64,000 nt of DNA from Corallococcus sp. EGB (GCF_019968905.1 NZ_CP079946.1:5921356-5985355), one strand, 5' to 3'; positions 23,237 through 51,802 are shown, counted from the stretch's first letter. The notes: generated from the sequence alone by a model not told the origin. Numbers and translations are program-made.

Positions 23237-26200
23237 CATGCGTCTCAGGGAAAAGCTGTTGACCAGCCTGCTGCTGGTGCCCCTCGCGGGTACCAGTGCG
23301 TGGGCCAAGGAGCGGTCGAATTACGACGCGTTCCTGGAGCAGCGGGACTCCCGCTCTCCGGCCGTGGATTCCAACACGGCCATGTCCCGCGGGCTTCGCA
23401 TCGAGCAGACCGAGCAGCGGCTCGGCGTTCCCACGTTCGCGTGGGCGACGCAGGACGGTGCGCAGTCCAAGTCCGTCATCCGCAACGGCATGACGCCGGA
23501 GAGCGCGGCGCGTGCGCACCTGCAGGCGGTGGCGGACAGCTACCGTCTGACGAGTGACGACGTCGCGGGCGCCAGCCTGCGCTCGGTGCACAACACCGGC
23601 AAGGGCGCCATCATCGCGACCTTCAACCAGTCGGTGGGTGGCATCCCCGTCTTCCGCAATGAGATCAAGGTCGTCATGGGCCAGGACCTGCGCCTGGTGG
23701 CCGTGAGCGGCTACCTGGCTCCGTCCGAGCTGGGGCTCGCAGCGCGCAGCAAGGCGCGCGCCGGCTTCAACCTGGCCGCCGCGGACGCGGTGTCCGGTGC
23801 GTTCAAGGACCTGACGGGCTCCGGCACGCAGGCCGCCTCGTTCATCAACGCGGGCACGAAGGGTGATTACACCTTCTTCGAGCTGGCGCCTTCCGCGAAG
23901 TCCGCGCTGCCGCAGGACCTGGCCACTCCGGCCCGCGCCCGGCAGGTGTTCTTCATGCTGGCCGGCAAGCTCGAGCCGGCCTGGTACGTGGAAGTGAACG
24001 CCGGTCCCAAGGCCGCGCGCTCCAGCGAGTACTACGCCTACGTGGTCTCCGCGGCCACCGGCCAGGTGCTCTTCCGCAACAACCTGACGGCGGACGTCGG
24101 CGCTGCGTTCACGTACCAGGTCTGGGCGAGCAACCAGTCCCCGTTCCTCCCGGACGACGGTCCCCAGGGCACCGACGCGACCCCGCACCCCACGGGCAAC
24201 CGCGACGGCTACCAGGCCCCGCTGAACCGCCCGCAGCAGCAGATCAGCCTGGCCAACAGCCCCTACAGCAAGAACGACCCCTGGCTGCCGGCCAACGCCA
24301 AGCAGACCACGGGTAACAACGTGGACGCGTACGCGGACCTGTCCGCGCCGGACGGCTTCCAGCCGAACAGCGCCGACATGCGCGCGGAGACGACGAGCGA
24401 CAACACCTTCGCGTACGTCTACGACACGACCAAGGCCCCGGGCTCCAGCCCGCAGCAGATCAAGGCCTCGGTGGTGAACCTGTTCTACGTGAACAACTTC
24501 CTGCACGACTGGTACTACGACTCCGGCTTCGACGAGGCCGCGGGCAACGCCCAGTCGTTCAACTTCGGCCGCGGCGGCGTGGAGGGCGACCCCATCCAGG
24601 CCCAGGCGCAGGACTACGGCGGCCGCAACAACGCGAACATGAGCACGCCGGCCGACGGTGCGTCGCCGCGCATGCAGATGTACGTGTTCGACGGCACGCC
24701 CGTGCTGTCCGTGACGGCGCCGCAGTCCCTGGCCGGGGTCTACGAGGCCACCTCCGCGAGCTTCGGTAAGCAGGCCTATGATACGACGGGAGACATCAAG
24801 AGTGCTCCCGCCGCCAACATCCTGGGCTGCAGCGCGTTCGACCCTGGTTACTTCACCGGGAAGATCGCCCTCATCGACCGCGGCACGTGCGACTTCAACG
24901 TCAAGGCGGACAACGCCCAGAAGGCGGGCGCGATCGCCACGGTCATCGTCAACAATACCTCGGGCAGCCCCCTCGCGATGGGCGGCACGAACGCGGCGGT
25001 CACCACCCCGGCCCTGATGATCACCCAGGACTCGGGCGCGGCGTGGAGGGCGGCGCTCGCCACCCAGACGCTGACCGTGAAGTTCCTGCGCGAGCCGAAC
25101 CAGGATCGCGACGGCACGCTCGACAACGGCATCATTGCGCACGAGTGGGGTCACTACATCAGCAACCGCCTCATCGGTAACTCCGCGGGCCTGACCAACA
25201 ACCAGGGCCGCTCGATGGGCGAGGGCTGGGGCGACTTCCACGCGATGCTGCTCCAGGTTCGCGCGGAGGACCAGGCCAAGCCGGGCAACGGCAACTGGCA
25301 GGGCGTCTACAGCACCGCGGGCTACGTCACCAGCGGTGGCAAGAACCAGGGCTACTACTACGGCATCCGTCGCTTCCCCTACACGACGGACATGAGCAAG
25401 AACGGCTACACGTTCAAGCACATCCAGAACTACACCGCCCTGCCGCTGGAGCTCGCCACGGCGAGCAACACCAACAACGCCGAGGTCCACAACAGCGGTG
25501 AGGTGTGGGCCACGACGCTGTGGGAGTGCTACGCCAACCTGCTGAACGCGCACCCGTTCTCCGAGGCGCAGGACCGCATGAAGCGGTACCTCATCGCGGC
25601 CTACAAGGCGACGCCGAACGCTCCTACCTACACGGAGGCGCGCGACGCGCTGCTGGCCGTCACGCTGGCTGCGGATCCCGCGGACTACCAGCGCTTCGTC
25701 GCGGCCTTCGCCAAGCGCGGCATGGGCTTTGGAGCCAAGTCGCCGGACCGCAACACGTTCGACCACATCGGCGTGACGGAGAGCTTCGCGGCGGGCGGCA
25801 ACCTGGAGGTCACCAGCATCGCGCTGACCGACACCCAGGGCGGCTGCGACCAGGACGGCATCCTGGACATCGGCGAGCAGGGTGAGCTGAAGATCACCGT
25901 GCGCAACGTGGGCGGCACCGGGCTGAGCGCCTTCACGGGCACTGTCAGCACCACCAGCACCACGGCCACCCTGCAGTTCCCCGCGGGGACCATCGTCTCC
26001 GTGCCGGCCCTGTCGCGCGGCGCCGAGGCCACCGTCACCCTGCCGGTCAACCTCACCGCGACGTCCAATGCGGTGGCGACCGCGGGCCTGAAGGTCGTCT
26101 TCGACTCCAACGAGATCCCCACGTCGGCGAAGACGGTGACGTTCGATCCTCGCGTCAACTACGACAACGTCCCGGTGGCCTCCAACACGGAGACCTTCGA

Positions 26201-28355
26201 AGCCGGCCTGTCGAGCTGGACCAATTCACGGGCGCTCTCGTCCTCGGGTGACTTCACGCTGGAGGGCACGACCGCCAACCGCTACGCGCACGCCAAGGAC
26301 CCGGGCACCGCGACGGCTCTCTCCCTCACCAGCCCCTGGATCAAGGTCGATCCGTCGACCAACTTCGTCTTCAGCTTTAGCGAACGTCACTCCTTCGAGT
26401 TCGACTCCAATCCCGCCTACTACGACGGCGCGGTGGTGGAGTTCACCGTCGACGGCGTGGAGTGGCTGGATCCCTACGAGTATTTCCGCCTGAACCCGGG
26501 CTACAGCGCCTTCCTCGAAGTGGGTGGTGCGAACCCGCTCGAGGACCGCGCCGCGCTGGCGGGGGTGAGCACGGGCTTCCCGGCCTTCCGCACGGTGACC
26601 GTAAACTTCGGCAAGATCTTCGCGGACAGCCAGATCTCGAACGTCCGTTTCCGCTTCGTCGTGGGCGCTGACGTGGGTGTCGGCGGCTACGGCATCGACA
26701 TCGACAACGTGAAGTTCCAGGGTGGCTCGCCCGTGTTCCAGGCCCAGGCGGAGCAGCCGGCCTCCACGGGCACATGCAACCTGCGCCCGGTGGCCAACCC
26801 GGGTCCGTCGATCACCGTCGCCGAAGGCAAGCTCGTCAACGGCATCCTCCAGCGTACGACCGTCACCCTCAACGGCACCGGCAGCTTCGATCCGGACGCC
26901 GCCCCCGGTGACACGCTCACCTACAACTGGACGCAGACGGGTGGTTACACGCCGGTGACGCTGACGGGCGCGAACACCGCGACGCCCAGCTTCGTCGCGA
27001 ACGTGGACTACGACGACGTCCTCGCCTTCCAGCTCGTCGTCACTGACGCGTCCGGCAAGGCGAGCCTCCCGAAGACGGTGGAGATCGGCATCGCCAACGT
27101 GAACCAGCCCCCGGTCGCTGACGCTTCGGCTCCGGAGACGGTGAACGAGGGCGCGACGGTGGTCCTCGACGCGTCGGCTTCCACGGATCCGGATCCGATC
27201 GACCAGGACGACCTGGAGTTCGCCTGGAAGCAGACGGGTGGCCCGGCCGTGGTGCTGACGGGCGCTGACTCCGCCACGGCCACGTTCACCGCTCCGGAAG
27301 TGGAGGCGAATACGCAGCTGACCTTCACGGTCACCGTGACCGACTACGACGGCGCCTCGAGTTCCAAGGCCGTCGCCGTGACGGTGAACAACGTGGACCG
27401 CGCTCCGGTGGCCAACGCTGGCGCGGACATCGAGGCGGATGCACGCTCCACGGTGACGCTGTCCGGCTCCGGCTCGGATCCGGATGGCACGCCCGTCACC
27501 TACGAGTGGGCGCAGACCTCCGGTCCGGCGGTGACGCTGTCCGGTGCGGACACGGCGACGGCGACCTTCACGGCGCCGGACGTCAACACCCCCACCGAGC
27601 TCACCTTCAAGCTCACCGTGTCCTCGGGCGGCCAGACGGCGTCCGACCTGGTCAACGTGACGGTGCGCAAGTCCAACCGCCACCCGGTGGGCCAGGCTCC
27701 GGCCTCCATCGACGCGAACGAGGGCACCAACGTGGTGCTGGACGCTTCCGGCATCACGGATCCGGACGGTGACGCGCTCACCTACGTCTGGGCCCAGGTC
27801 GGTGGCCCCACGGTGCAGACCACGGGCGCGGGCACGGCCCAGCTGGCCTTCACCGCGCCGCAGGTCCAGGCCGACACGGCCGTGGCCTTCAGCCTCACCG
27901 TGACGGACTCCGACGGCGCCACCTCCGGCCCGTTCGTCTACACGGTCAACGTGAAGCAGGTGAACCAGGGCCCTGTCGCCAAGGCCCGCGTCATCTCCGG
28001 CATCCGCGGCGGTGAGCTGGTGAAGCTCGACGCCTCCACGTCCACGGATCCGGACAACGAGCCGCTGACCTACACCTGGGCGCAGACGGGTGGCCCGTCC
28101 GTGACGCTGTCCGGCACCAACTCCGCCGAGGCCAGCTTCACCCCGCCGGCGAAGAAGACGCTGGAGACCTACGCCTTCACCGTCACGGTGAAGGACGCGG
28201 GCGGTCTCTCCAGCACCGCCGAGGTGAAGGTCTCCGTGCCGAAGGCCGACGACGACGGCGGCGGCTGCTCCTCCACGGGCGGCTCCGCTGGCGGCATGGC
28301 GCCGCTGATGGCGCTGTTCGCGGCGATGGCGCTCGCGCGCCGTCGCAAGGCGTAG
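23237..28355 (+). CDS. secreted M36 (fungalysin)-like zinc metalloprotease with an FTP propeptide, a PA domain, five PKD-like about 97-aa repeats and a MYXO-CTERM anchor
   Basis: The ATG at 23237 has an AAGGAAGG RBS and the signal peptide MRLREKLLTSLLLVPLAGTSAWA. AHEWGHYISNRLIG is the M36-type HExxH...SNRL motif. GKIALIDRGTCDFNVKADNAQKAGAIATVIVNN is the PA domain. Repeats of the pattern PVA.AG.D......TV.LDGS.S.DPD...LTY.W.QT.GP.V.L.G are PKD-like. The C-terminal DDGGGCSSTGGSAGGMAPLMALFAAMALARRRKA is the MYXO-CTERM motif. Confidence 0.85.
26780..28250 (+). repeat. five tandem repeats with a period of about 290-300 nt, encoding the PKD-like domains of the metalloprotease
   Basis: Recurrent nucleotide and protein motifs begin near 26791, 27109, 27400, 27690 and 27970. 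Confidence 0.8.
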
Positions 28356-28479: not shown

Positions 28480-28875
28480 ATGGCACGCACGTTCCAGGTG
28501 GGAGACACCTTCACGCACGTCCGCCAGTGCGACCGGCTGCGGCCGGTCTATTACGCGGGCGCTTCCGGGGACTACAACCCCATCCACATCGACCCGGAGG
28601 TGGGCAGACTGGCCGGCTTCAACGGCGTCATCCTCCAGGGGCTCTGCACGCTGGGCTGGGCCGTGGAGGCCGTGGCCGCCTTCGTGGGGGACCCGGGGCT
28701 CGTGCGCCGTGTGAAGGTGCGCTTCTCCCGGCCCGTGCTGCCCGAGGACACCGTCACCTTCCAGGGCCGCGTCACCGCCATCGCGGACGGCCGGCTCACC
28801 ACGGAAGTCACCGCCACCAACCAGCGCGGCGAGCCCGTCCTCCGGGGCGCCGTCGTGGAAACCTCGCTCGGATAG
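28480..28875 (+). CDS. MaoC-like (R)-specific hydratase/dehydratase, the catalytic hotdog subunit
   Basis: YAGASGDYNPIHIDPEVGRLAGF is the hydratase-2 catalytic motif. Confidence 0.8.
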   Translation: MARTFQVGDTFTHVRQCDRLRPVYYAGASGDYNPIHIDPEVGRLAGFNGVILQGLCTLGWAVEAVAAFVGDPGLVRRVKVRFSRPVLPEDTVTFQGRVTAIADGRLTTEVTATNQRGEPVLRGAVVETSLG

Positions 28876-28877
28876 CC

Positions 28878-29360
28878 ATGGCCCTGGACCCCAAGTTCGT
28901 CGGCCGTGCCTACGGCCCCTTCACCTACGAAGTCGGCCTGGAGAAGCTGCGCGAGTTCTCCCTCATCCTCGGCGGCTCCGTGCCCTCCGCGGGCACCTTC
29001 GGTGAGCCTCCGGCGCACGTGAGCCCCCTGCTCTATTCGCGGGAGGCGGCCCAGGCGGGCCCGTATGGCGACGTCATCGCCTTCCCCAGCTTCGCGGTGG
29101 TCTTCGCCATCCGCCCCTTCAGCGCCGCCATCGCGGACCCGGAGCTGGGCGTGGACCGCGTGCGGCTGGTGCACGGTGAGCAGGAGCTGGAGTTCCTGGA
29201 CGTGATTCGCCCCGGGGATGTGCTCACCACCACGGGCTCCATCACGGAGCTCTATCGCAAGGCGGGCATGGACTTCCTCGTCGTCACCACGGAGACGCGC
29301 AACGCGAAGGGAGAGCCCGTGGTGCGCGGCGTGTGGACGGCCGTCATCCGCCCCGCGTGA
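28878..29360 (+). CDS. MaoC-N-like hotdog protein, the non-catalytic partner of the adjacent dehydratase (HadA/HadB-like pair)
   Basis: 160 aa. It starts 3 nt after the previous stop. Hotdog-like composition without the catalytic D..H motif. Confidence 0.65.
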   Translation: MALDPKFVGRAYGPFTYEVGLEKLREFSLILGGSVPSAGTFGEPPAHVSPLLYSREAAQAGPYGDVIAFPSFAVVFAIRPFSAAIADPELGVDRVRLVHGEQELEFLDVIRPGDVLTTTGSITELYRKAGMDFLVVTTETRNAKGEPVVRGVWTAVIRPA

Positions 29361-29381: not shown

Positions 29382-30167
29382 CTACTCGCCGGGGGCGATG
29401 ATGCCCTCGTCGAGCAGCTGCGCGAGGATGCGCGCAGTGTCCAGCCGCGACATGCCGGACAGCGCGAACAGGTCGTCGAAGCTCACCGCGCCGTCAATCT
29501 GGGCCAGCACGAAGCCCGCGCGGTGGTCCAGGTTGAGCCAGATGATGTCGTCCGGCTGAAGCCGGACGCGCGGCATGCGGTTCAGGTCCCCCAGCCGGGC
29601 CTCCAGCATGGACATCAGGATGCGCTCGCTGCGGTCGCGCAGCGCCTCCACGCGCGGGTTCTCCGGCGCCAGGGACTGGGCCCGGCGCAAGAGCTCCACC
29701 GCGCCGGAGTGGTCATCCAGCGCCAGCAGGTCCTCCGCGCCGCGCAGCAGGCGCTCCACCTCCGAGCCCTCCGGCAGTCCGCCCACCGGAGCGAAGGTGT
29801 CCGGCAGGCCGAACTCCTGCGTGCGGTGCGCCTCCGCGAGCAGGTCCAACGCGTCGCCGCGCATCCCCGTGCCTTCCGGCAGGCTCACGGATTCACGCAG
29901 GGGCTCTTCCACCGGGCCCGGCGTGGAGGGGCCAGCCCAGGCGCCCCAGTCCACTTCCTGCTCCGGGTTCGCCAGGTTCCACCCGGTGTCCCCTCCCGCG
30001 GCCCCCGGCTCCGGCGAACCGTCCCGCCCCAGCAGCCGGCGGGCGCGGACGTTGTCCGGATCCAGCTCCAGGGCCCGGGCGAACAGCCTCTCCGCGCCGG
30101 CCGTGTCGCCACTCAGTCGCAAGAGCAGCCCGGCTTCAACGAGCGCCTTGGCCCGGAGCGCGTTCAT
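29382..30167 (-). CDS. TPR-like hypothetical protein with a C-terminal domain related to the N-terminus of the J-protein two genes upstream
   Basis: The N-terminus ALVEAGLLLRLSGDTAGAERLFARALELDPDNVRARRLL is TPR-like. The C-terminal GFVLAQIDGAVSFDDLFALSGMSRLDTARILAQLLDEGII resembles SVLALVGRVERIDAVLSRSSLGEARTIAVLLSLRAKGAI of the 32037-33356 gene. Confidence 0.6.
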   Translation of the reverse strand: MNALRAKALVEAGLLLRLSGDTAGAERLFARALELDPDNVRARRLLGRDGSPEPGAAGGDTGWNLANPEQEVDWGAWAGPSTPGPVEEPLRESVSLPEGTGMRGDALDLLAEAHRTQEFGLPDTFAPVGGLPEGSEVERLLRGAEDLLALDDHSGAVELLRRAQSLAPENPRVEALRDRSERILMSMLEARLGDLNRMPRVRLQPDDIIWLNLDHRAGFVLAQIDGAVSFDDLFALSGMSRLDTARILAQLLDEGIIAPGE

Positions 30168-30170
30168 GGG

Positions 30171-32018
30171 CTACCTCCCCGGCGTCCCGCGCCCGCCCGC
30201 CGAGCGCAACAGCGGCAGGCTCTGGGCCAGGGACTCGCAGGCGCGGGTGAGCGCGCCCACGTCCTCGCCGCCGCGCGCCTGGCGCGCATGGTCCAGCGCG
30301 GCCTCCGCGCGGGCGACGACGTCGGGTGACAGGCCGCCGGCGCCGGGCATGAGCCGCACGCGGGACAGCGCGTCCACCACGTCGCGGGCGAGGATGTCCA
30401 GCTCCATGCGCTTGGACTTCAGCTCCTCCGTGTTGCGCGCGGCCACCAGCCAGTCGCGCTGCTCGTCCATGATGCGGCGCAGCTCGTCCTCGGTGAGGCC
30501 GCTGGAGGCGGTGACGGTGATGGACTGGCGCAGGCCCGTGTCGCGGTCTCGCGCGGACACCGACACGATGCCCTCCGCGTTGATGTCGAACGTCACCTCG
30601 ATTTCGACCTGTCCTCGCGGCGCCTCGCGCAGGCCGGTGAGGAGGAACTCGCCCAGCAGCTCGTTGTGGTGCGCGAGCTCGTGCTCGCCCTGGAGCACCA
30701 TGATCTTCACCGTGCGCTGGAAGTCCTTGGAGGTGGCGAACACGTCCGTGGCGGACGTGGGCACGGTGGTGTTGCGAGGGATCAGCCGCCTCACGTAGCC
30801 GCCCGCGATGGCCACGCCCATGCTCTGGGGCGTGACGTCCAGGAGGAGCAGCTCGCTCTGCTGGCCCACCAGCGCGTGTGCCTGGATGGCGGCGCCCAGG
30901 GCCACCACCTCCTCCGCGTGCACGCCCTTGCAGGGCTCGCGGCGGAAGTACTGGCGCACCTGCTCCACGATGCGGGGCATGCGCGACATGCCCCCCACCA
31001 GGATGACCTCCTTCAGGTCCGAGGGGCGCACCTTCGCCTCGCCCAGCACCTCCGACGTGATGCCCACCAGGCGCTCACCCAGGTCGTTGGTGAGCTCCTC
31101 CAGCTTCTCGCGGGTGAGCGTGGACTGCAGGTGCAGCGCGGCGCCTCCGCCCGGCGGCGTGCAGATGAAGGGCAGGTGCACCTGCGTCTCCTTCACCGAC
31201 GACAGCTCCACCTTCGCCTTCTCCGCGGCGTCCTTCAGCCGCTGCAGCGCCATGCGGTCCTTGCGCAGGTCGATGCCGTGCTCCTTGGCGAAGCCGAACA
31301 CCATCCACTCGATGATGCGCTGGTCCCAATCCTCGCCGCCGAGGAAGGTGTCACCGCCGGTGGCCACCACGTCGAAGACGCCGTTGTTGATCTCCAGCAC
31401 CGACACGTCGAAGGTGCCGCCGCCCAGGTCCAGCACGGCGATCTTCCCGTTCACCGTGCGGCCGAAGCCGTAGGCCAGCGCCGCCGCGGTGGGCTCGTTG
31501 ATGATGCGCAGGACGTCCAGCCCCGCGATGCGGCCCGCGTCCTTGGTGGCCTGGCGCTGGCCGTCGTTGAAGTAGGCCGGAACTGTGATGACGGCCTGGG
31601 TGACGGGCCGGCCGAAGTGCGCCTCCGCGTCCGCCTTCAGCTCCGCCAAGATCATGGCGCTGACCTCCGGCACGGCGAGGTCGCGGCCCGCCAGCCGGAT
31701 GCGCACGTCGTCGTGCTGGCCGCCCACCACCTGGTACGTGAGCGCGCGCAGCGCGTCCTGCACCGGGTGCGAGGAGAACTTACGGCCGATGAGGCGCTTG
31801 GCCGCGGACACCGTCTCCTGCGGGTTGGTGATGGCCTGCCGCTTGGCGATGCTCCCCACCAGCCGCTTGCCGTTCTTCGACACGGCCACCACGGACGGGG
31901 TGAGGGCCTGGCCGGTGCGGTTCTTGATGATGATGGGCTGACCGTCCTGCACCGTGGCGACGAGGCTGTTCGTCGTCCCCAGGTCGATGCCGATCAGCGG
32001 TTCGGGCTCAGCAGCCAT
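30171..32018 (-). CDS. Hsp70-family chaperone (DnaK paralog)
   Basis: IGIDLGTTNSLVA...VPAYFNDGQRQATKDAGRIAGLDV...DLGGGTFDVS are the Hsp70 signature motifs. It is full length, including a substrate-binding domain. Confidence 0.9.
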   Translation of the reverse strand: MAAEPEPLIGIDLGTTNSLVATVQDGQPIIIKNRTGQALTPSVVAVSKNGKRLVGSIAKRQAITNPQETVSAAKRLIGRKFSSHPVQDALRALTYQVVGGQHDDVRIRLAGRDLAVPEVSAMILAELKADAEAHFGRPVTQAVITVPAYFNDGQRQATKDAGRIAGLDVLRIINEPTAAALAYGFGRTVNGKIAVLDLGGGTFDVSVLEINNGVFDVVATGGDTFLGGEDWDQRIIEWMVFGFAKEHGIDLRKDRMALQRLKDAAEKAKVELSSVKETQVHLPFICTPPGGGAALHLQSTLTREKLEELTNDLGERLVGITSEVLGEAKVRPSDLKEVILVGGMSRMPRIVEQVRQYFRREPCKGVHAEEVVALGAAIQAHALVGQQSELLLLDVTPQSMGVAIAGGYVRRLIPRNTTVPTSATDVFATSKDFQRTVKIMVLQGEHELAHHNELLGEFLLTGLREAPRGQVEIEVTFDINAEGIVSVSARDRDTGLRQSITVTASSGLTEDELRRIMDEQRDWLVAARNTEELKSKRMELDILARDVVDALSRVRLMPGAGGLSPDVVARAEAALDHARQARGGEDVGALTRACESLAQSLPLLRSAGGRGTPGR

Positions 32019-32036
32019 GGGGACGCATGCACCTCA

Positions 32037-33356
32037 TCACGTGAACGTCCAGCGCAGCTTCTTGAGGGCGGCGCGAGCGTCTGCGTTGTCCGGGTCCAGG
32101 CGCACGACCTCTTCGAAGTGGTGCTTGGCCTGCTTCTTCTGACCTGCCACCAGGAGCAGCTGGGCCAGGAGCAACTGGTAGTCCGCCCGCCCCGGCTTGA
32201 GCTCCACCGCGCGCTGCGCGAGCTTCAGCACCTCCTGCGCGTCCTGCGTCAGCTCCCGTCCGACGCGCGCCGCCTGGAAGGCCGCCTCCGGGTTGTCCGG
32301 GTTGAGCGACACGGCCAGCTTGTAGGCCGCCTGCGCTCCGGCGAAGTCCCCGCTCATCTCCAATTGCTGGCCGCGCTCCACCTCCGCCTGCGCGCGCGAC
32401 AGGTCGTGCTTGCGGCGCGCCTCCATCAGCAGCTGCGTGACCTCGCGGTTCTTCGGGTCCAGGCCCAGCACGTGGTTGAAGTCCTGGTAGGCCCGCTCGA
32501 AGTCGCCGCGCGCGGTGGCCGCCTTGCCCCGGGCGATGAGCTCCGTGAGCTTGTGGCTGCGCGCCATGTACGGGTGGCGCGCGAGGCGGGCCTGCCGCTC
32601 GGCGCGGCGGGCCTCGGACTCCGGATCCTCCGGGGGCGCGACGGGGGGCGGCGCCGGAGCGGCCGGGGGCGTCACCGCCGCGAAGCCACTGCCGGACACC
32701 GTGCGAGCCGGGGCCGTCACCGCCGCGAAGCCGCTGCCGGACACCGTGCGCCCGGCCGGGGGCGGCGTGGGCGGGCGCGCGGCCGGAGGCGGCGGCGTGG
32801 GAGGGCGCGGTGGCTCCTGACGGCTGAGGGCGTTGTGGGCGTCCGTGAGGCGCTTGAAGATGCGCTCCAGCCGGGCGCGGAAGCTGCCCAGGTTCTTGCC
32901 GAAGTAGCGGTCCGGGTGGAAGCGGCGGGACGCGTTGTAATACGCCTGCTTCACCTCCTGCGGGGACGCGCCTCGAGCCACGCCCAGCACCGCGTGGTGG
33001 TCCATCCCGTCCAGCGAGCGCTCCATCTCGATGATGTCGCGCTTCTGCTCGGGATCCAGGTCCACCTCCTCCGCCATGGCGGCGTCCACCACGGGAGCGG
33101 CGGGCGGGGCGCGCTGCACCACCCGGGCGGGCACGATGGCCCCCTTGGCGCGCAGCGACAGCAGCACGGCGATGGTACGCGCCTCGCCCAGCGAGGAGCG
33201 GGAAAGCACGGCGTCGATGCGTTCGACACGGCCCACCAGCGCCAGCACCGAGCCCTCCTCCGGGCTGAGCTGGAGACGGGCCGGGTCCAGGTGGGGCACC
33301 GTGGCGATGTGGTCGGTCCTGCCCCCCAGGCCGACGATGGGGTTGGGCGCGCTCAA
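32037..33356 (-). CDS. J-domain (DnaJ-like) protein with an N-terminal DUF4388-like domain, a Pro-rich tandem repeat and C-terminal TPR repeats
   Basis: The J domain is HHAVLGVARGASPQEVKQAYYNASRRFHPDRY. The TPR region is ...GDFERAYQDFNHVLGLDPKN...AYKLAVSLNPDNPEA...VVRLDPDNADA. Confidence 0.8.
   Translation of the reverse strand: MSAPNPIVGLGGRTDHIATVPHLDPARLQLSPEEGSVLALVGRVERIDAVLSRSSLGEARTIAVLLSLRAKGAIVPARVVQRAPPAAPVVDAAMAEEVDLDPEQKRDIIEMERSLDGMDHHAVLGVARGASPQEVKQAYYNASRRFHPDRYFGKNLGSFRARLERIFKRLTDAHNALSRQEPPRPPTPPPPAARPPTPPPAGRTVSGSGFAAVTAPARTVSGSGFAAVTPPAAPAPPPVAPPEDPESEARRAERQARLARHPYMARSHKLTELIARGKAATARGDFERAYQDFNHVLGLDPKNREVTQLLMEARRKHDLSRAQAEVERGQQLEMSGDFAGAQAAYKLAVSLNPDNPEAAFQAARVGRELTQDAQEVLKLAQRAVELKPGRADYQLLLAQLLLVAGQKKQAKHHFEEVVRLDPDNADARAALKKLRWTFT
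32671..32760 (-). repeat. 2 x 45-nt near-perfect tandem repeat inside the J-protein gene (encodes RTVSGSGFAAVT(A/P)PA twice)
   Basis: gtcaccgccgcgaagcc(a/g)ctgccggacaccgtgcg... occurs twice in direct tandem. Confidence 0.8.
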
Positions 33357-33448
33357 GGTGTCAGTTTCCCAGGCTGGCGAATCCCCAAGTGTAGGTGCCC
33401 GGGAAGCAAGGCGTCAAACGTTCCCGGGTCCCCGAAACCCCTCATCTG

Positions 33449-34672
33449 CTACAGCGCGGAGAGGACGTGCTGGAGGATTCCCAGCGCTTCGTCGAGTTCC
33501 TGTTTCGTGATGATGAGCGGCGGCGCGAACCGCAGGGTGACCTCTCCCGCGGAGTTCACCAGCAATCCGGCTTCACGCAGCTTCGCGATGACGGGGGCGA
33601 CGTCCCGATCCAGCTCCACGCCCAGGAGCAGCCCCTGTCCGCGCACGGCCTTGATGCGCCCTTCCGGCAGCGAGGCCTGGAGCGCGCGCGCGCCGGCGAG
33701 GAAGTGCTCGCCCTTGGCCTGGACGTCGGAGAGGAAGCCGGGCGCGCCCATGATCCGCAGCACCACGTTGCCCGCGGCGGCGGACACCAGGTTGCCGCCG
33801 AACGTGGAGCCGTGGGTGCCCGGGGAGAGGCTGACCGCCAGCTCCTCGCGGCACAGCATGGCGCCCATGGGCAGCCCGTTGCCGAGCGCCTTCGCGACGC
33901 TGATCGCGTCCGGTCGGATGCCGTGGTGCATGAAGCCGAAGGGCTGGCCGGTGCGGCCCATGCCCGTCTGGACCTCGTCCACGAGCAGCAGGAGGCCCGT
34001 CTCGTCACAGAGGGCGCGCAGGCCCTTGAGGAACTCCGGGGGCGCCATGCGCACGCCGCCCTCACCCTGGATGGGCTCCACGAGGATGGCGGCGGTGGAC
34101 GGCCCCACGGCGCGGCGCACCGCCTCCAGGTCACCGAAGGGCAGGTGCCGGAAGCCCTGGGGCAGCGGCTCGAAGCCGGCGTGGTACTTCGGCTGGCCCG
34201 TGGCGGTGACGGTGGCCAGCGTGCGGCCGTGGAAGCTCTTCTCGAAGGAGAGGATCTCGAAGCGCTCGGGCGTGCCCCGGTCCTTCATCACCTTGCGGGT
34301 GAGCTTGATGAGGGCCTCGTTGGCCTCCGCGCCGGAGTTGCAGAAGAACGCGCGCGGCAGGCCGGCCCATTCAGTCAGGCGCGTGGCCAGGTCGATCTGC
34401 GGCTGCGAGTAGAAGACGTTGGAGACGTGCCACAGCGTGTCCAGCTGCGCCTTCGCCGCCGCGACGACCTCCGGGTGGCAGTGGCCCAGGGCGCACACCG
34501 CGATGCCGCCAATGCAGTCCAGGTACGCCTTGCCATCCGCGTCCCACACCCGGGTCCCCTGCCCACGCACCAGGGCAATGGGCTGCTGCTTGTAGTTCTG
34601 CACCAGGTGCTGCTTCGCCTGCTGGATGAGGGCTTCGTTGCCAGGGGCGGCTGCGGGGGACGGCGTTTGCAA
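33449..34672 (-). CDS. argD: acetylornithine/succinylornithine aminotransferase (class III PLP)
   Basis: ...LVRGQGTRVWDADGKAYLDCIGGIAVCALGHCHP...FFCNSGAEANE...LLLVDEVQTGMGRTG...SVAKALGNGLP. The start is a probable TTG at 34672-34670 (MQTPSP...) with GGAAGAGAGAGG upstream. The start is uncertain. Confidence 0.85.
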   Translation of the reverse strand: MQTPSPAAAPGNEALIQQAKQHLVQNYKQQPIALVRGQGTRVWDADGKAYLDCIGGIAVCALGHCHPEVVAAAKAQLDTLWHVSNVFYSQPQIDLATRLTEWAGLPRAFFCNSGAEANEALIKLTRKVMKDRGTPERFEILSFEKSFHGRTLATVTATGQPKYHAGFEPLPQGFRHLPFGDLEAVRRAVGPSTAAILVEPIQGEGGVRMAPPEFLKGLRALCDETGLLLLVDEVQTGMGRTGQPFGFMHHGIRPDAISVAKALGNGLPMGAMLCREELAVSLSPGTHGSTFGGNLVSAAAGNVVLRIMGAPGFLSDVQAKGEHFLAGARALQASLPEGRIKAVRGQGLLLGVELDRDVAPVIAKLREAGLLVNSAGEVTLRFAPPLIITKQELDEALGILQHVLSAL

Positions 34673-34733
34673 GGTGGTGTACCTCTCTCTTCCTGATGGC
34701 GCGGTGGGACGACGCGGCGGGGACCCTAGCGCG

Positions 34734-36131
<1,398 letters not shown>

Positions 36132-36143
36132 GGGGCGGTCCTC

Positions 36144-36671
36144 TCAGAGCTCTTCGTAGGAGACGTTGGCGTTGGTGTAGACGCAGATGTCCGCCGCGAT
36201 GGCCATGGCCTGCGTGCAGATCTCACGGGCGGACAGCTGCGAGTGCGCCTGGAGGGCGCGCGCGGCGGCGAGCGCGTAGTGGCCCCCGCTGCCCACGGCG
36301 GCGATGCCGTGGTCCGGTTCGATGACGTCGCCGGCCCCGGAGAGGATGAAGGTCTTCTCCTTGTCCGCGACGATGAGCAGCGCCTCCAGGCGGCGGAGGA
36401 AGCGGTCGGTGCGCCAGTCCTTGCCCAGCTCCACGCAGGCGCGGGCCAGGTTCTTCTGGTGCTCCTTGAGCTTGGCCTCGAAGCGCTCGAAGAGCGTGAA
36501 GGCGTCCGCGGTGCTGCCCGCGAAGCCGGCGAGCACCTGCCCCTCGCCCAGCTTGCGCACCTTGCGCGCGGTGTTCTTCATGATGGTCTTGTCGAGGCTG
36601 ACCTGGCCGTCGCCCGCGATGACGACCTTCCCGTCGCGGCGAACGCAGAGGATGGTGGTGCCGTGGAACAT
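36144..36671 (-). CDS. hslV: ATP-dependent protease subunit HslV
   Basis: [25 protein letters not shown]... has the N-terminal Thr active site after Met removal. It sits immediately upstream of hslU. Confidence 0.93.
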
Positions 36672-50525: not shown

Positions 50526-51656
50526 TTAGACCTTCTCGTACCGTTTACCCGGGTGCTGGACCACCAGCCCCGACAATTCCAATTCCACCAGGGCGCTCAT
50601 GAGCGCCGCGGGTGACAGCGGACTCGCGGCGAGCACCTCGTCGAACGAGCGGGGAACCCGATCCAACAGCCCATAGGCCCCGCGCGCTTCCGCCGACAGC
50701 GCCTCCCACCACCCCGCGTCCCGCCCCGCCGGCACCGCACGAACCGGGTCAACGCCCACCACCGCACAGATTGCTTCCGGGGACGTGCATGCGCGGGCCC
50801 GCCCGTCCGCCAGCAGGGCGTTGCAGCCCGCCGCGGCCGGCTGCCAGACGTCCCCCGGCAGCGCGAACACCGGCCGGCCCTGCAGCTGGGCCGCGTCCGC
50901 CGTGTACAGGGCTCCGGAGCCCGCTCCCGCCCGCATCACCAGCACCGCATCCGACGCGCCAGCGATGAGTCGGTTGCGCCGGGGGAAGGTGGTCGTGCTC
51001 GCCCGGACCCCGGGCGGCAGCTCGCTGAAGTACACCCCTCCCCGCTCCAGGAAGTGGGGCAGCAGCCGGGCCTGGGCGGGGTCCAACGCGTCCAGCGCGG
51101 AGCCCAGGAAGGCCCACGTCTCCGCGCCCACGTCCAGGGCGCCCCAGTGGCACGCCCGGTCCACGCCCTCCGCCGCGCCCGACACCACCCCGACCCCGGC
51201 CTCCGCCACCTTCCGGGCGAACGTGCGCGCGAACGGAAGGAAGCCCTGGTCCGGATGGCGGCTGCCCACCATGGCCAGGCGCCGCCGGGGAGGCCCCGGA
51301 AGGCCCAGGTAGAACAGCAGCGGGGGCGCGTCCTCCAGGCCCACCAGCCGGGCGGGATAGGCGGGCGTGCCCGCGAAGGCCACCTGGAGGCCCGCTCGGG
51401 CACAGGCCTCCTCCGTGCGGGACGCCAGGGCGTCCAGGGATGCGACGGCGGCCAGGCGCTGGCGGACGGCCGCGGGCACCGGCACGTCCGACAGCCAGTC
51501 CTTCACGGGCACGGACGCGAGACGGGAAAGCGCTCCCCCGGCGAACGCGCGCACCGCGTCCAACGTCCGGGGCCCCAGGCCGGCAATGGCCCAGAGCGCC
51601 AGGGTGGCGCGCTGCTCGTCCCAGTGTAGGTGTGTGTCCGTGCTCGTGTCCGCCAT
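50526..51656 (-). CDS. dprA: DNA-processing protein DprA (Smf)
   Basis: ...LAMVGSRHPDQGFLPFARTFARKVAEAGVGVVSGAAEGVDRACH... is the DprA Rossmann-like domain. The dprA-topA arrangement is common. Confidence 0.85.
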   Translation of the reverse strand: MADTSTDTHLHWDEQRATLALWAIAGLGPRTLDAVRAFAGGALSRLASVPVKDWLSDVPVPAAVRQRLAAVASLDALASRTEEACARAGLQVAFAGTPAYPARLVGLEDAPPLLFYLGLPGPPRRRLAMVGSRHPDQGFLPFARTFARKVAEAGVGVVSGAAEGVDRACHWGALDVGAETWAFLGSALDALDPAQARLLPHFLERGGVYFSELPPGVRASTTTFPRRNRLIAGASDAVLVMRAGAGSGALYTADAAQLQGRPVFALPGDVWQPAAAGCNALLADGRARACTSPEAICAVVGVDPVRAVPAGRDAGWWEALSAEARGAYGLLDRVPRSFDEVLAASPLSPAALMSALVELELSGLVVQHPGKRYEKV

Positions 51657-51802
51657 ACCGTCCCCCGCCTGTTTCCCACCTATATAGAGGTGGTCTCGGG
51701 AGGGGCGTGACACATAACACCGGCTCTTCGGGGGTCAAGCGACCCGCCCTTCCCGGGCGGGCCGGAATGCAGCATTCCTGCCGTTCCTGAGCGCCGCCAA
51801 CC

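Follow-up and report, generated by a model that had tools for sequence, protein, structure and literature searches.

In Escherichia coli, HscC with DjlC/DjlB and HscA with HscB illustrate a logic in which a second Hsp70 is encoded beside a class C J-protein of its own but not beside GrpE, is not a heat-shock housekeeping chaperone and cannot replace DnaK. To our knowledge, neither system includes a third partner built of tetratricopeptide repeats (TPR) and a winged helix, and their J-proteins carry other client-binding domains. The biology of bacteria with many Hsp70 paralogs is poorly understood, and for most paralogs both partners and clients are obscure. A locus in a 64,000-nucleotide stretch of the Corallococcus sp. 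EGB genome (NZ_CP079946.1:5921356-5985355, hereafter the window) resembles these specialised pairs: on the minus strand a J-domain/TPR gene is followed by an Hsp70 gene and then by the gene of a third protein, hereafter named T. On balance, the three genes are read here as one conserved expression unit for a dedicated, non-housekeeping Hsp70 system of Myxococcaceae and Archangiaceae, in which T would serve as adaptor or co-chaperone. The Hsp70 and J genes are already known from two papers on Myxococcus xanthus, and the new elements are the third protein T and a small domain. The gain is incremental, since pairing a specialised Hsp70 with a class C J-protein of its own is an established logic and the phenotypes of the ortholog are published and mild; what it adds is one Hsp70 paralog tied to two specific neighbours in at least 59 genomes.

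The three-gene locus and its M. xanthus orthologs

Open reading frame (ORF) calling placed gaps of 18 nucleotides (nt) between the J and Hsp70 genes and of 3 nt between the Hsp70 and T genes. These gaps, the gene order and the lengths of 439, 615 and 261 amino acids (aa) agree exactly with a first-pass annotation of the same DNA. The features of the trio are listed below, with J-N denoting the N-terminal winged helix of the J protein and T-C the C-terminal winged helix of T.

32037..33356, minus strand: class C J-domain protein, 439 aa, TTG start, ortholog of MXAN_3015 (ORF calling, Pfam)
30171..32018, minus strand: Hsp70, 615 aa, ortholog of MXAN_3016 (ORF calling, Pfam, NCBIfam)
29382..30167, minus strand: T protein, 261 aa, ortholog of MXAN_3017, with TPR, disordered linker, TPR-like hairpin plus long helix, and winged helix
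33117..33338, minus strand: predicted J-N winged-helix domain, aa 7-80 of the J protein
32814..33002, minus strand: J domain, aa 119-181, with the HPD motif in ...RRFHPDRYFG... (PF00226, 45.2 bits against a cut-off of 27.8)
32662..32808, minus strand: Pro-rich linker of the J protein, with a 45-nt in-frame tandem duplication and a 30-nt repeat
32055..32549, minus strand: C-terminal TPR domain of the J protein, aa 270-434 (TPR_2, TPR_19, TPR_14 and TPR_1, all above their cut-offs)
30024..30152, minus strand: N-terminal TPR motif of T, aa 6-48 (TPR_2, 34 bits), nearly invariant in the family
29592..29771, minus strand: TPR-like helical hairpin and long capping helix of T, aa 133-192
29391..29573, minus strand: T-C winged helix, aa 199-259, acidic and nearly invariant (predicted topology, sub-threshold helix-turn-helix (HTH) matches)
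33388..33417, minus strand: promoter-like site TTGACG-18-TACACT (consensus match), inside the 92 nt that separate argD from the J gene

The J protein shows 100% identity to the entry 'J domain-containing protein' of Corallococcus sp. EGB. It is of class C, possessing an HPD J domain and neither a Gly/Phe region nor a zinc finger, with TPR families as its only other Pfam matches; its first ~110 residues match no Pfam or NCBIfam model. The duplication in its linker (2.0 copies, 95% match) encodes RTVSGSGFAAVT twice and is adjoined by the 30-nt repeat. It looks strain-specific, with close relatives measuring 424-438 aa. The combination of J domain and TPR echoes the eukaryotic DNAJC3/P58IPK and DNAJC7 in reversed domain order, the J domain here preceding the TPR.

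The Hsp70 matches PF00012 with 672 bits over residues 9-600 and aligns with E. coli DnaK residues 4-594, with GIDLGTTNS, DLGGGTFD and the LLLLDVTP linker conserved, and it carries the full nucleotide-binding domain (NBD), interdomain linker, substrate-binding domain (SBD-beta) and lid. Its best NCBIfam scores are obtained with DnaK models and not with HscA: NF001413 scored 726.6, above the cut-off of 648, while TIGR02350 (prok_dnaK) scored 704.7, below the cut-off of 822.55. The ortholog MXAN_3016 is assigned by CDD to cl35085 rather than to PRK00290. At their C-termini the Hsp70 sequences close with ...GTPGR or ...SLFK, tails that are neither EEVD-like nor conserved.

The order in the window is also the order in M. 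xanthus, namely hslV-hslU-argD-J (453 aa)-Hsp70 (613 aa)-T (294 aa), after which comes a convergent pair of MaoC-type genes. The primer MXAN_3016-KO-DF, mapped in locus L001, fuses 15 nt lying immediately 5' of the Hsp70 ORF to the opening 15 nt of the T ortholog, and these borders identify the Hsp70 as MXAN_3016 and T as MXAN_3017; the J ortholog, Q1D7Z9, is MXAN_3015 by accession match. The three proteins are direct orthologs of those in the window with 58-82% identity, alike in order, in the hslV-hslU-argD and HadAB-like flanks and in domain layout, and they differ in belonging to another genus and in the 45-nt duplication that the Corallococcus J linker carries.

Previous studies showed that MXAN_3016 is deletable, weakly expressed and not heat-induced, and that it fails to rescue an E. 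coli delta-dnaK strain at 37 °C (Pan et al. 2021, PMC8265645). Its deletion left fruiting bodies, swarming, predation and S-motility normal, and led to reduced sporulation and poorer recovery from H2O2 (PMC8265645). MXAN_3015 was later listed as a class C J-protein, and two GrpE homologs are encoded elsewhere in M. xanthus (Pan et al. 2024, PMC11019930). In the literature searched, nothing on MXAN_3017 or on the new locus tags of the trio was found beyond these two papers, neither of which mentions MXAN_3017, and no paper handles the trio as a single module or reports the winged-helix domains. The obligate third gene, the near-invariant winged helix and its weak kinship with the J N-terminus are undescribed in that literature. 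The first-pass suggestion that the machine might be uncharacterised accordingly stands for T and falls for the Hsp70 and J proteins, which are covered by PMC8265645 and PMC11019930.

Identity with the housekeeping dnaK-dnaJ-grpE system is excluded by the class C neighbour, by the lack of any grpE within ~7 kb on either side of the trio, and by an ortholog that is deletable, not heat-induced and non-complementing. A specialised, non-housekeeping Hsp70 module, which had been proposed from the DNA together with the remark that grpE is not nearby, is supported on both counts. The proposal had also drawn a line to motility and exopolysaccharide through StkA and SglK, which are likewise Hsp70 paralogs of this group of organisms, and here it found no support, as the locus is neither stk nor sglK and S-motility is normal in the MXAN_3016 deletion (PMC8265645). 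The stk locus encodes a StkA of 540 aa followed by the SCP2-like StkB and the small PhaE-like StkC, in place of a 615-aa Hsp70 followed by the TPR/winged-helix protein T. The sglK gene encodes a PRK00290-type DnaK beside the GrpE homologue MXAN_6672 (PMC11019930), and is required for S-motility (PMC8265645).

Elsewhere in M. xanthus, at MXAN_2745/MXAN_2747, another class C J-protein (271 aa) is encoded two genes from another non-canonical Hsp70, and this J-protein co-purified only with DnaK1 (PMC11019930). The pair may be a second dedicated module.

Conservation across myxobacteria

In a scan of one genome per species, 169 loci were found to encode T-C, and the best 80 of the 169 all belong to Myxococcaceae/Archangiaceae or to unclassified Myxococcota metagenome-assembled genomes. 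Among the loci with enough flanking (upstream) DNA to be informative, the order J-Hsp70-T on one strand was found in 59 of 59, so the first-pass view of the triad as a conserved unit was borne out. The J-Hsp70 gap is typically 10-27 nt and the Hsp70-T gap typically -4 to +16 nt. In nearly all of the 59, the trio is immediately preceded by hslV-hslU-argD, with the order of these genes unchanged.

Short metagenomic contigs yielded three distant J orthologs whose neighbours differ, and the Hsp70 gene still follows directly. In one of these loci (L083), the Hsp70 gene is followed by a gene that starts with a TPR-like segment and a Pro-rich stretch, and a HigB-like toxin/HTH antitoxin pair (L083 236-833) lies immediately upstream of this trio. 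Another distant J ortholog is preceded by a fragment of ornithine transcarbamylase (OTCase), also an arginine-pathway gene.

The architecture of the outer partners varies between lineages. Archangium-type J proteins, encoded in 28 of the 59 loci (L034 3914-4885 and 27 similar loci), are ~315 aa long, start 1-40 nt after the argD stop codon, too close for J-N to fit in, and are without J-N, and a profile search over six-frame ORFs found no relocated copy of J-N in these loci. The Archangium-type T proteins reach 440-800 aa through long Pro-rich linkers. The core of T-C is the same in lineages with and without J-N, and T-C identity between the two lineage groups is 75%, compared with 69% for the Hsp70. 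J-N is an accessory element, without which the module would still work. As T-C is unchanged where J-N is missing, the constraint on T-C comes from a partner present everywhere rather than from J-N, and mutual docking of J-N and T-C cannot explain the conservation of T-C.

The T protein and the two winged-helix domains

T is 92% identical to a protein of C. aberystwythensis. Its Pfam content is limited to the single TPR at residues 6-48, the N-terminal TPR was the sole match in a PDB sequence search, and its last ~70 residues match no Pfam or NCBIfam model. Across the family the length of T ranges from 250 to ~800 aa by way of the Pro-rich linker, with T-C remaining constant around the near-invariant core IIWLNLDHRAGFVLAQIDG.V.F.DLF..SGM.R.DTARILAQL..EG.I.; at least 817 protein clusters belong to the T-C family, for which no family model exists. 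The net charge over 59 sequences is about -4 for T-C and about +2 for J-N, and DNA binding by T-C is unlikely because the domain is acidic. With TPR and winged-helix folds as its only components according to predicted models and Pfam, T appears to be a binding protein and not an enzyme, as argued from these folds and from the charge and conservation of T-C.

A co-chaperone of the Hop/CHIP type that clamps an EEVD tail was considered for T and rejected. T has one TPR and one TPR-like hairpin, and the Hsp70 tail is not EEVD-like; compared with Hop/Sti1, CHIP, PP5 and SGT, T has just two isolated TPR-like units, which do not suffice to build a carboxylate clamp.

Structures of T residues 131-261 and J residues 1-118 were predicted with AlphaFold2 on the basis of family alignments. 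The T model (mean pLDDT, the predicted local distance difference test, 89.6) comprises the TPR-like hairpin, a long helix and then strand-helix-helix-helix-strand, and the J model, with core pLDDT >90, runs strand, helix, short strand, helix, helix, strand. One offset (+53) puts the shared J elements onto those of the T segment, in the register of the sequence alignment; the pairs (J/T; E, strand; H, helix) are as follows.

E16-19/E69-71
H32-41/H86-93
H47-53/H100-106
H58-71/H111-123
E74-77/E127-129

Nothing in the T model corresponds to the short J elements H25-28 and E44-46. Foldseek returned non-significant matches for the T model, the best being winged-helix parts of Npr2/NPRL2, RPC39, 3k9t and 8hkr, and Npr2/NPRL2, 3k9t and 8hkr are common to the J-N and T models. 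Pfam scores point in the same direction below the curated cut-offs, with HTH_Crp_2 (0.03) and HTH_IclR (0.12) for isolated T-C and HTH_IclR (3e-4 and 5.5e-3), TrmB (1.9e-3) and DprA_WH (0.035) for distant J-N variants. On the basis of these models, J-N and T-C are divergent winged-helix domains. The label DUF4388-like, which had been attached to the shared segment, was not confirmed: DUF4388/PATAN gave no Pfam match at E <= 1 for the whole proteins or at E <= 10 for the isolated domains and five distant variants. Among known domains, the DprA C-terminal winged helix (PF17782), the IclR/TrmB/MarR winged helices and the recognition elements of ribosomally synthesised and post-translationally modified peptides (RiPPs) are the nearest in kind, and their Pfam scores here all lie below the curated cut-offs. 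In contrast to them, T-C is acidic, and both J-N and T-C stand outside a DNA-processing or RiPP context.

The first-pass annotation had noticed a motif shared by the J N-terminus and the T C-terminus, and alignment and profile comparison upheld this as a weak relationship. BLASTP aligned J-N and T-C with 15/54 identical residues (28%, pairwise E = 0.004), and their Smith-Waterman score of 49 compares with 26.2 +/- 4.7 for shuffled sequences, 1 of 2000 of which reaches 49. Comparison by hhalign of profiles from 118 T and 106 J homologs gave P = 1.9e-4, and P = 6.6e-5 with a probability of 64% over 48 gapless columns when J-N was built from 50%-identity representatives; across both runs the gapless span was 46-48 columns and the probability 47-64%. 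None of 200 column-shuffled J profiles reached the real score of 27.1 (mean 11.3, max 22.5), and the reversed profile scored 13.2.

A J-N hidden Markov model (HMM) run over all six-frame ORFs of the window found T residues 208-261 as its best non-self match (E = 0.0068). The next-best was the DprA_WH domain of the dprA gene (50526-51713, minus strand) with E = 0.038, which calibrates how generic the winged-helix signal is. In 13,257 six-frame ORFs of 81 related loci, all 24 weak matches of the J-N profile were T C-termini in the same register. The reverse search over window ORFs with a T-C HMM (effective number of sequences, Neff, 1.6) did not match J. At database scale, the J-N profile against 1.84 billion representatives yielded 45 matches without any T, consisting only of J orthologs, one DprA and artefacts, and no new architectures. 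Among these, P0302 is an ABC ATPase with a J-N fragment at residues 165-208, and P0306 and P0307 are long repetitive proteins; the three matches are probably chimeric assembly and low-complexity artefacts. Taken from the sequences, the similarity of J-N and T-C is real, above chance and recurrent, but weak, and the two domains appear to be distant relatives.

Working model, alternatives and neighbouring genes

For the proposed mechanism, the class C J protein would trigger ATP hydrolysis in the adjacent Hsp70 through its HPD J domain, and its C-terminal TPR array, together with J-N in Myxococcaceae, would select or position the substrate. The Hsp70 would run an ordinary clamp cycle because its NBD, linker, SBD and lid are canonical, with nucleotide exchange supplied in trans by GrpE. 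T would be made in step with the Hsp70, because the stop-to-start gap is -4 to +16 nt, and would offer two conserved protein-binding ends, the TPR and the TPR-like/winged-helix part, on a disordered, length-variable, Pro-rich tether. Most likely T acts as a fixed chaperone partner whose acidic winged helix links the Hsp70/J pair to a conserved target. The physiological role, as suggested by the M. xanthus ortholog, would be auxiliary, in efficient sporulation and peroxide tolerance and not in viability, heat shock or motility. Such a trio offers an explanation of why MXAN_3016 alone could not replace DnaK, and T, an unannotated protein with a domain more conserved than the chaperone itself, provides a concrete bait for the targets of a non-housekeeping Hsp70.

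Several observations weigh against a dedicated system of this kind. The loci sampled belong mostly to two related families, and the synteny may partly reflect shared ancestry rather than selection. The phenotypes of the MXAN_3016 deletion are mild and common to three unrelated Hsp70 paralogs (PMC8265645), and thus do not show a sharply dedicated function. MXAN_3015 co-purifies with the essential housekeeping DnaK1 (MXAN_3192), as confirmed by split luciferase, and not with SglK (PMC11019930), which indicates that the J protein is not exclusive to the neighbouring Hsp70. MXAN_3017 is absent from the interactome tables of that study, in which MXAN_3016 was not among the baits.

Other readings differ mainly in what they make of T and of the two winged helices. 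One of them would reduce the likeness of J-N and T-C to mere membership of the winged-helix superfamily without function, leaving a J/Hsp70 pair beside an unrelated neighbour. The E value of T-C is only slightly better than that of the unrelated DprA winged helix in the window, a DprA winged helix is also the sole match of the J-N profile at database scale that is neither a J protein nor an artefact, and the hhalign probability is just 47-64%; yet the alignment is gapless over ~62 residues including an extra N-terminal strand and spacer, the +53 offset fits all shared elements of two independent models, which retrieve the same PDB neighbours, and a gene found after the Hsp70 gene in every informative locus is no casual neighbour, so that this reading is possible but doubtful. 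The opposite view, held in the first-pass annotation, makes the contact of J-N and T-C the core of the module, the two docking on each other to close a J-Hsp70-T complex or on one common target. It draws on the weak but specific similarity of the domains, on the restriction of all weak J-N matches in the related loci to T C-termini, and on their opposite charges. Against this, the J protein of 28 of the 59 lineages is without J-N and no copy has moved elsewhere in those loci, T-C is near-invariant there and its constraint has another source, and the J-N profile retrieves no T at database scale, all of which makes such docking quite improbable.

T could also be the dedicated client or regulated output of the J/Hsp70 pair, a winged-helix/TPR factor under its control, for which the control of sigma-32 by DnaK and the effect of HscC on sigma-70 are parallels. 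The tight coupling of the T and Hsp70 genes, a long disordered linker as a possible binding site for an Hsp70 and a fold common in regulators would fit this idea, but T-C is acidic, matches DNA-binding HTH families only below threshold and is accompanied by no evident target genes or binding sites, and we consider it unlikely. A bolder and similarly improbable proposal is that the MXAN_3017-like T family represents a new class of bacterial Hsp70 co-chaperones, in which T-C binds the Hsp70, for example as an exchange or cycle-modulating factor replacing GrpE, the TPR and tether reach the client or site, and J-N is a later duplicate that adds a contact. Finally, synteny alone could suggest that the module hands substrates to HslUV and that the unit is hslV-hslU-argD-J-Hsp70-T, since the three upstream genes keep their place in nearly all 59 loci and in M. 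xanthus. The biosynthetic argD intervenes, however, a promoter-like site lies between argD and the J gene, the distant triad adjoins a HigB/HigA pair instead, and synteny among related genomes is weak evidence, which leaves this link very improbable.

The genes around the trio in the window are the following.

36144-36671, minus strand: hslV, upstream neighbour of the trio
34734-36131, minus strand: hslU, upstream neighbour of the trio
33449-34696, minus strand: argD, directly upstream of the J gene
28480-29360, plus strand: pair of genes for small dehydratases of MaoC type, similar to HadB and HadA of mycobacteria and convergent with the T gene
23238-28355, plus strand: very large secreted, myxosortase-dependent M36 family metallopeptidase with PKD-like repeats and a C-terminal sorting tail (NF038112, 2549 bits)

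None of the three trio proteins matches a PADLOC anti-phage defence model. The promoter-like site upstream of the J gene is a candidate from a consensus match, one such site being seen in 9 kb against 0.2 expected. An arginine biosynthesis gene, argD, is wedged between the hslV-hslU protease genes and the chaperone trio, and on the other side the HadB/HadA-like pair also flanks the M. xanthus locus.

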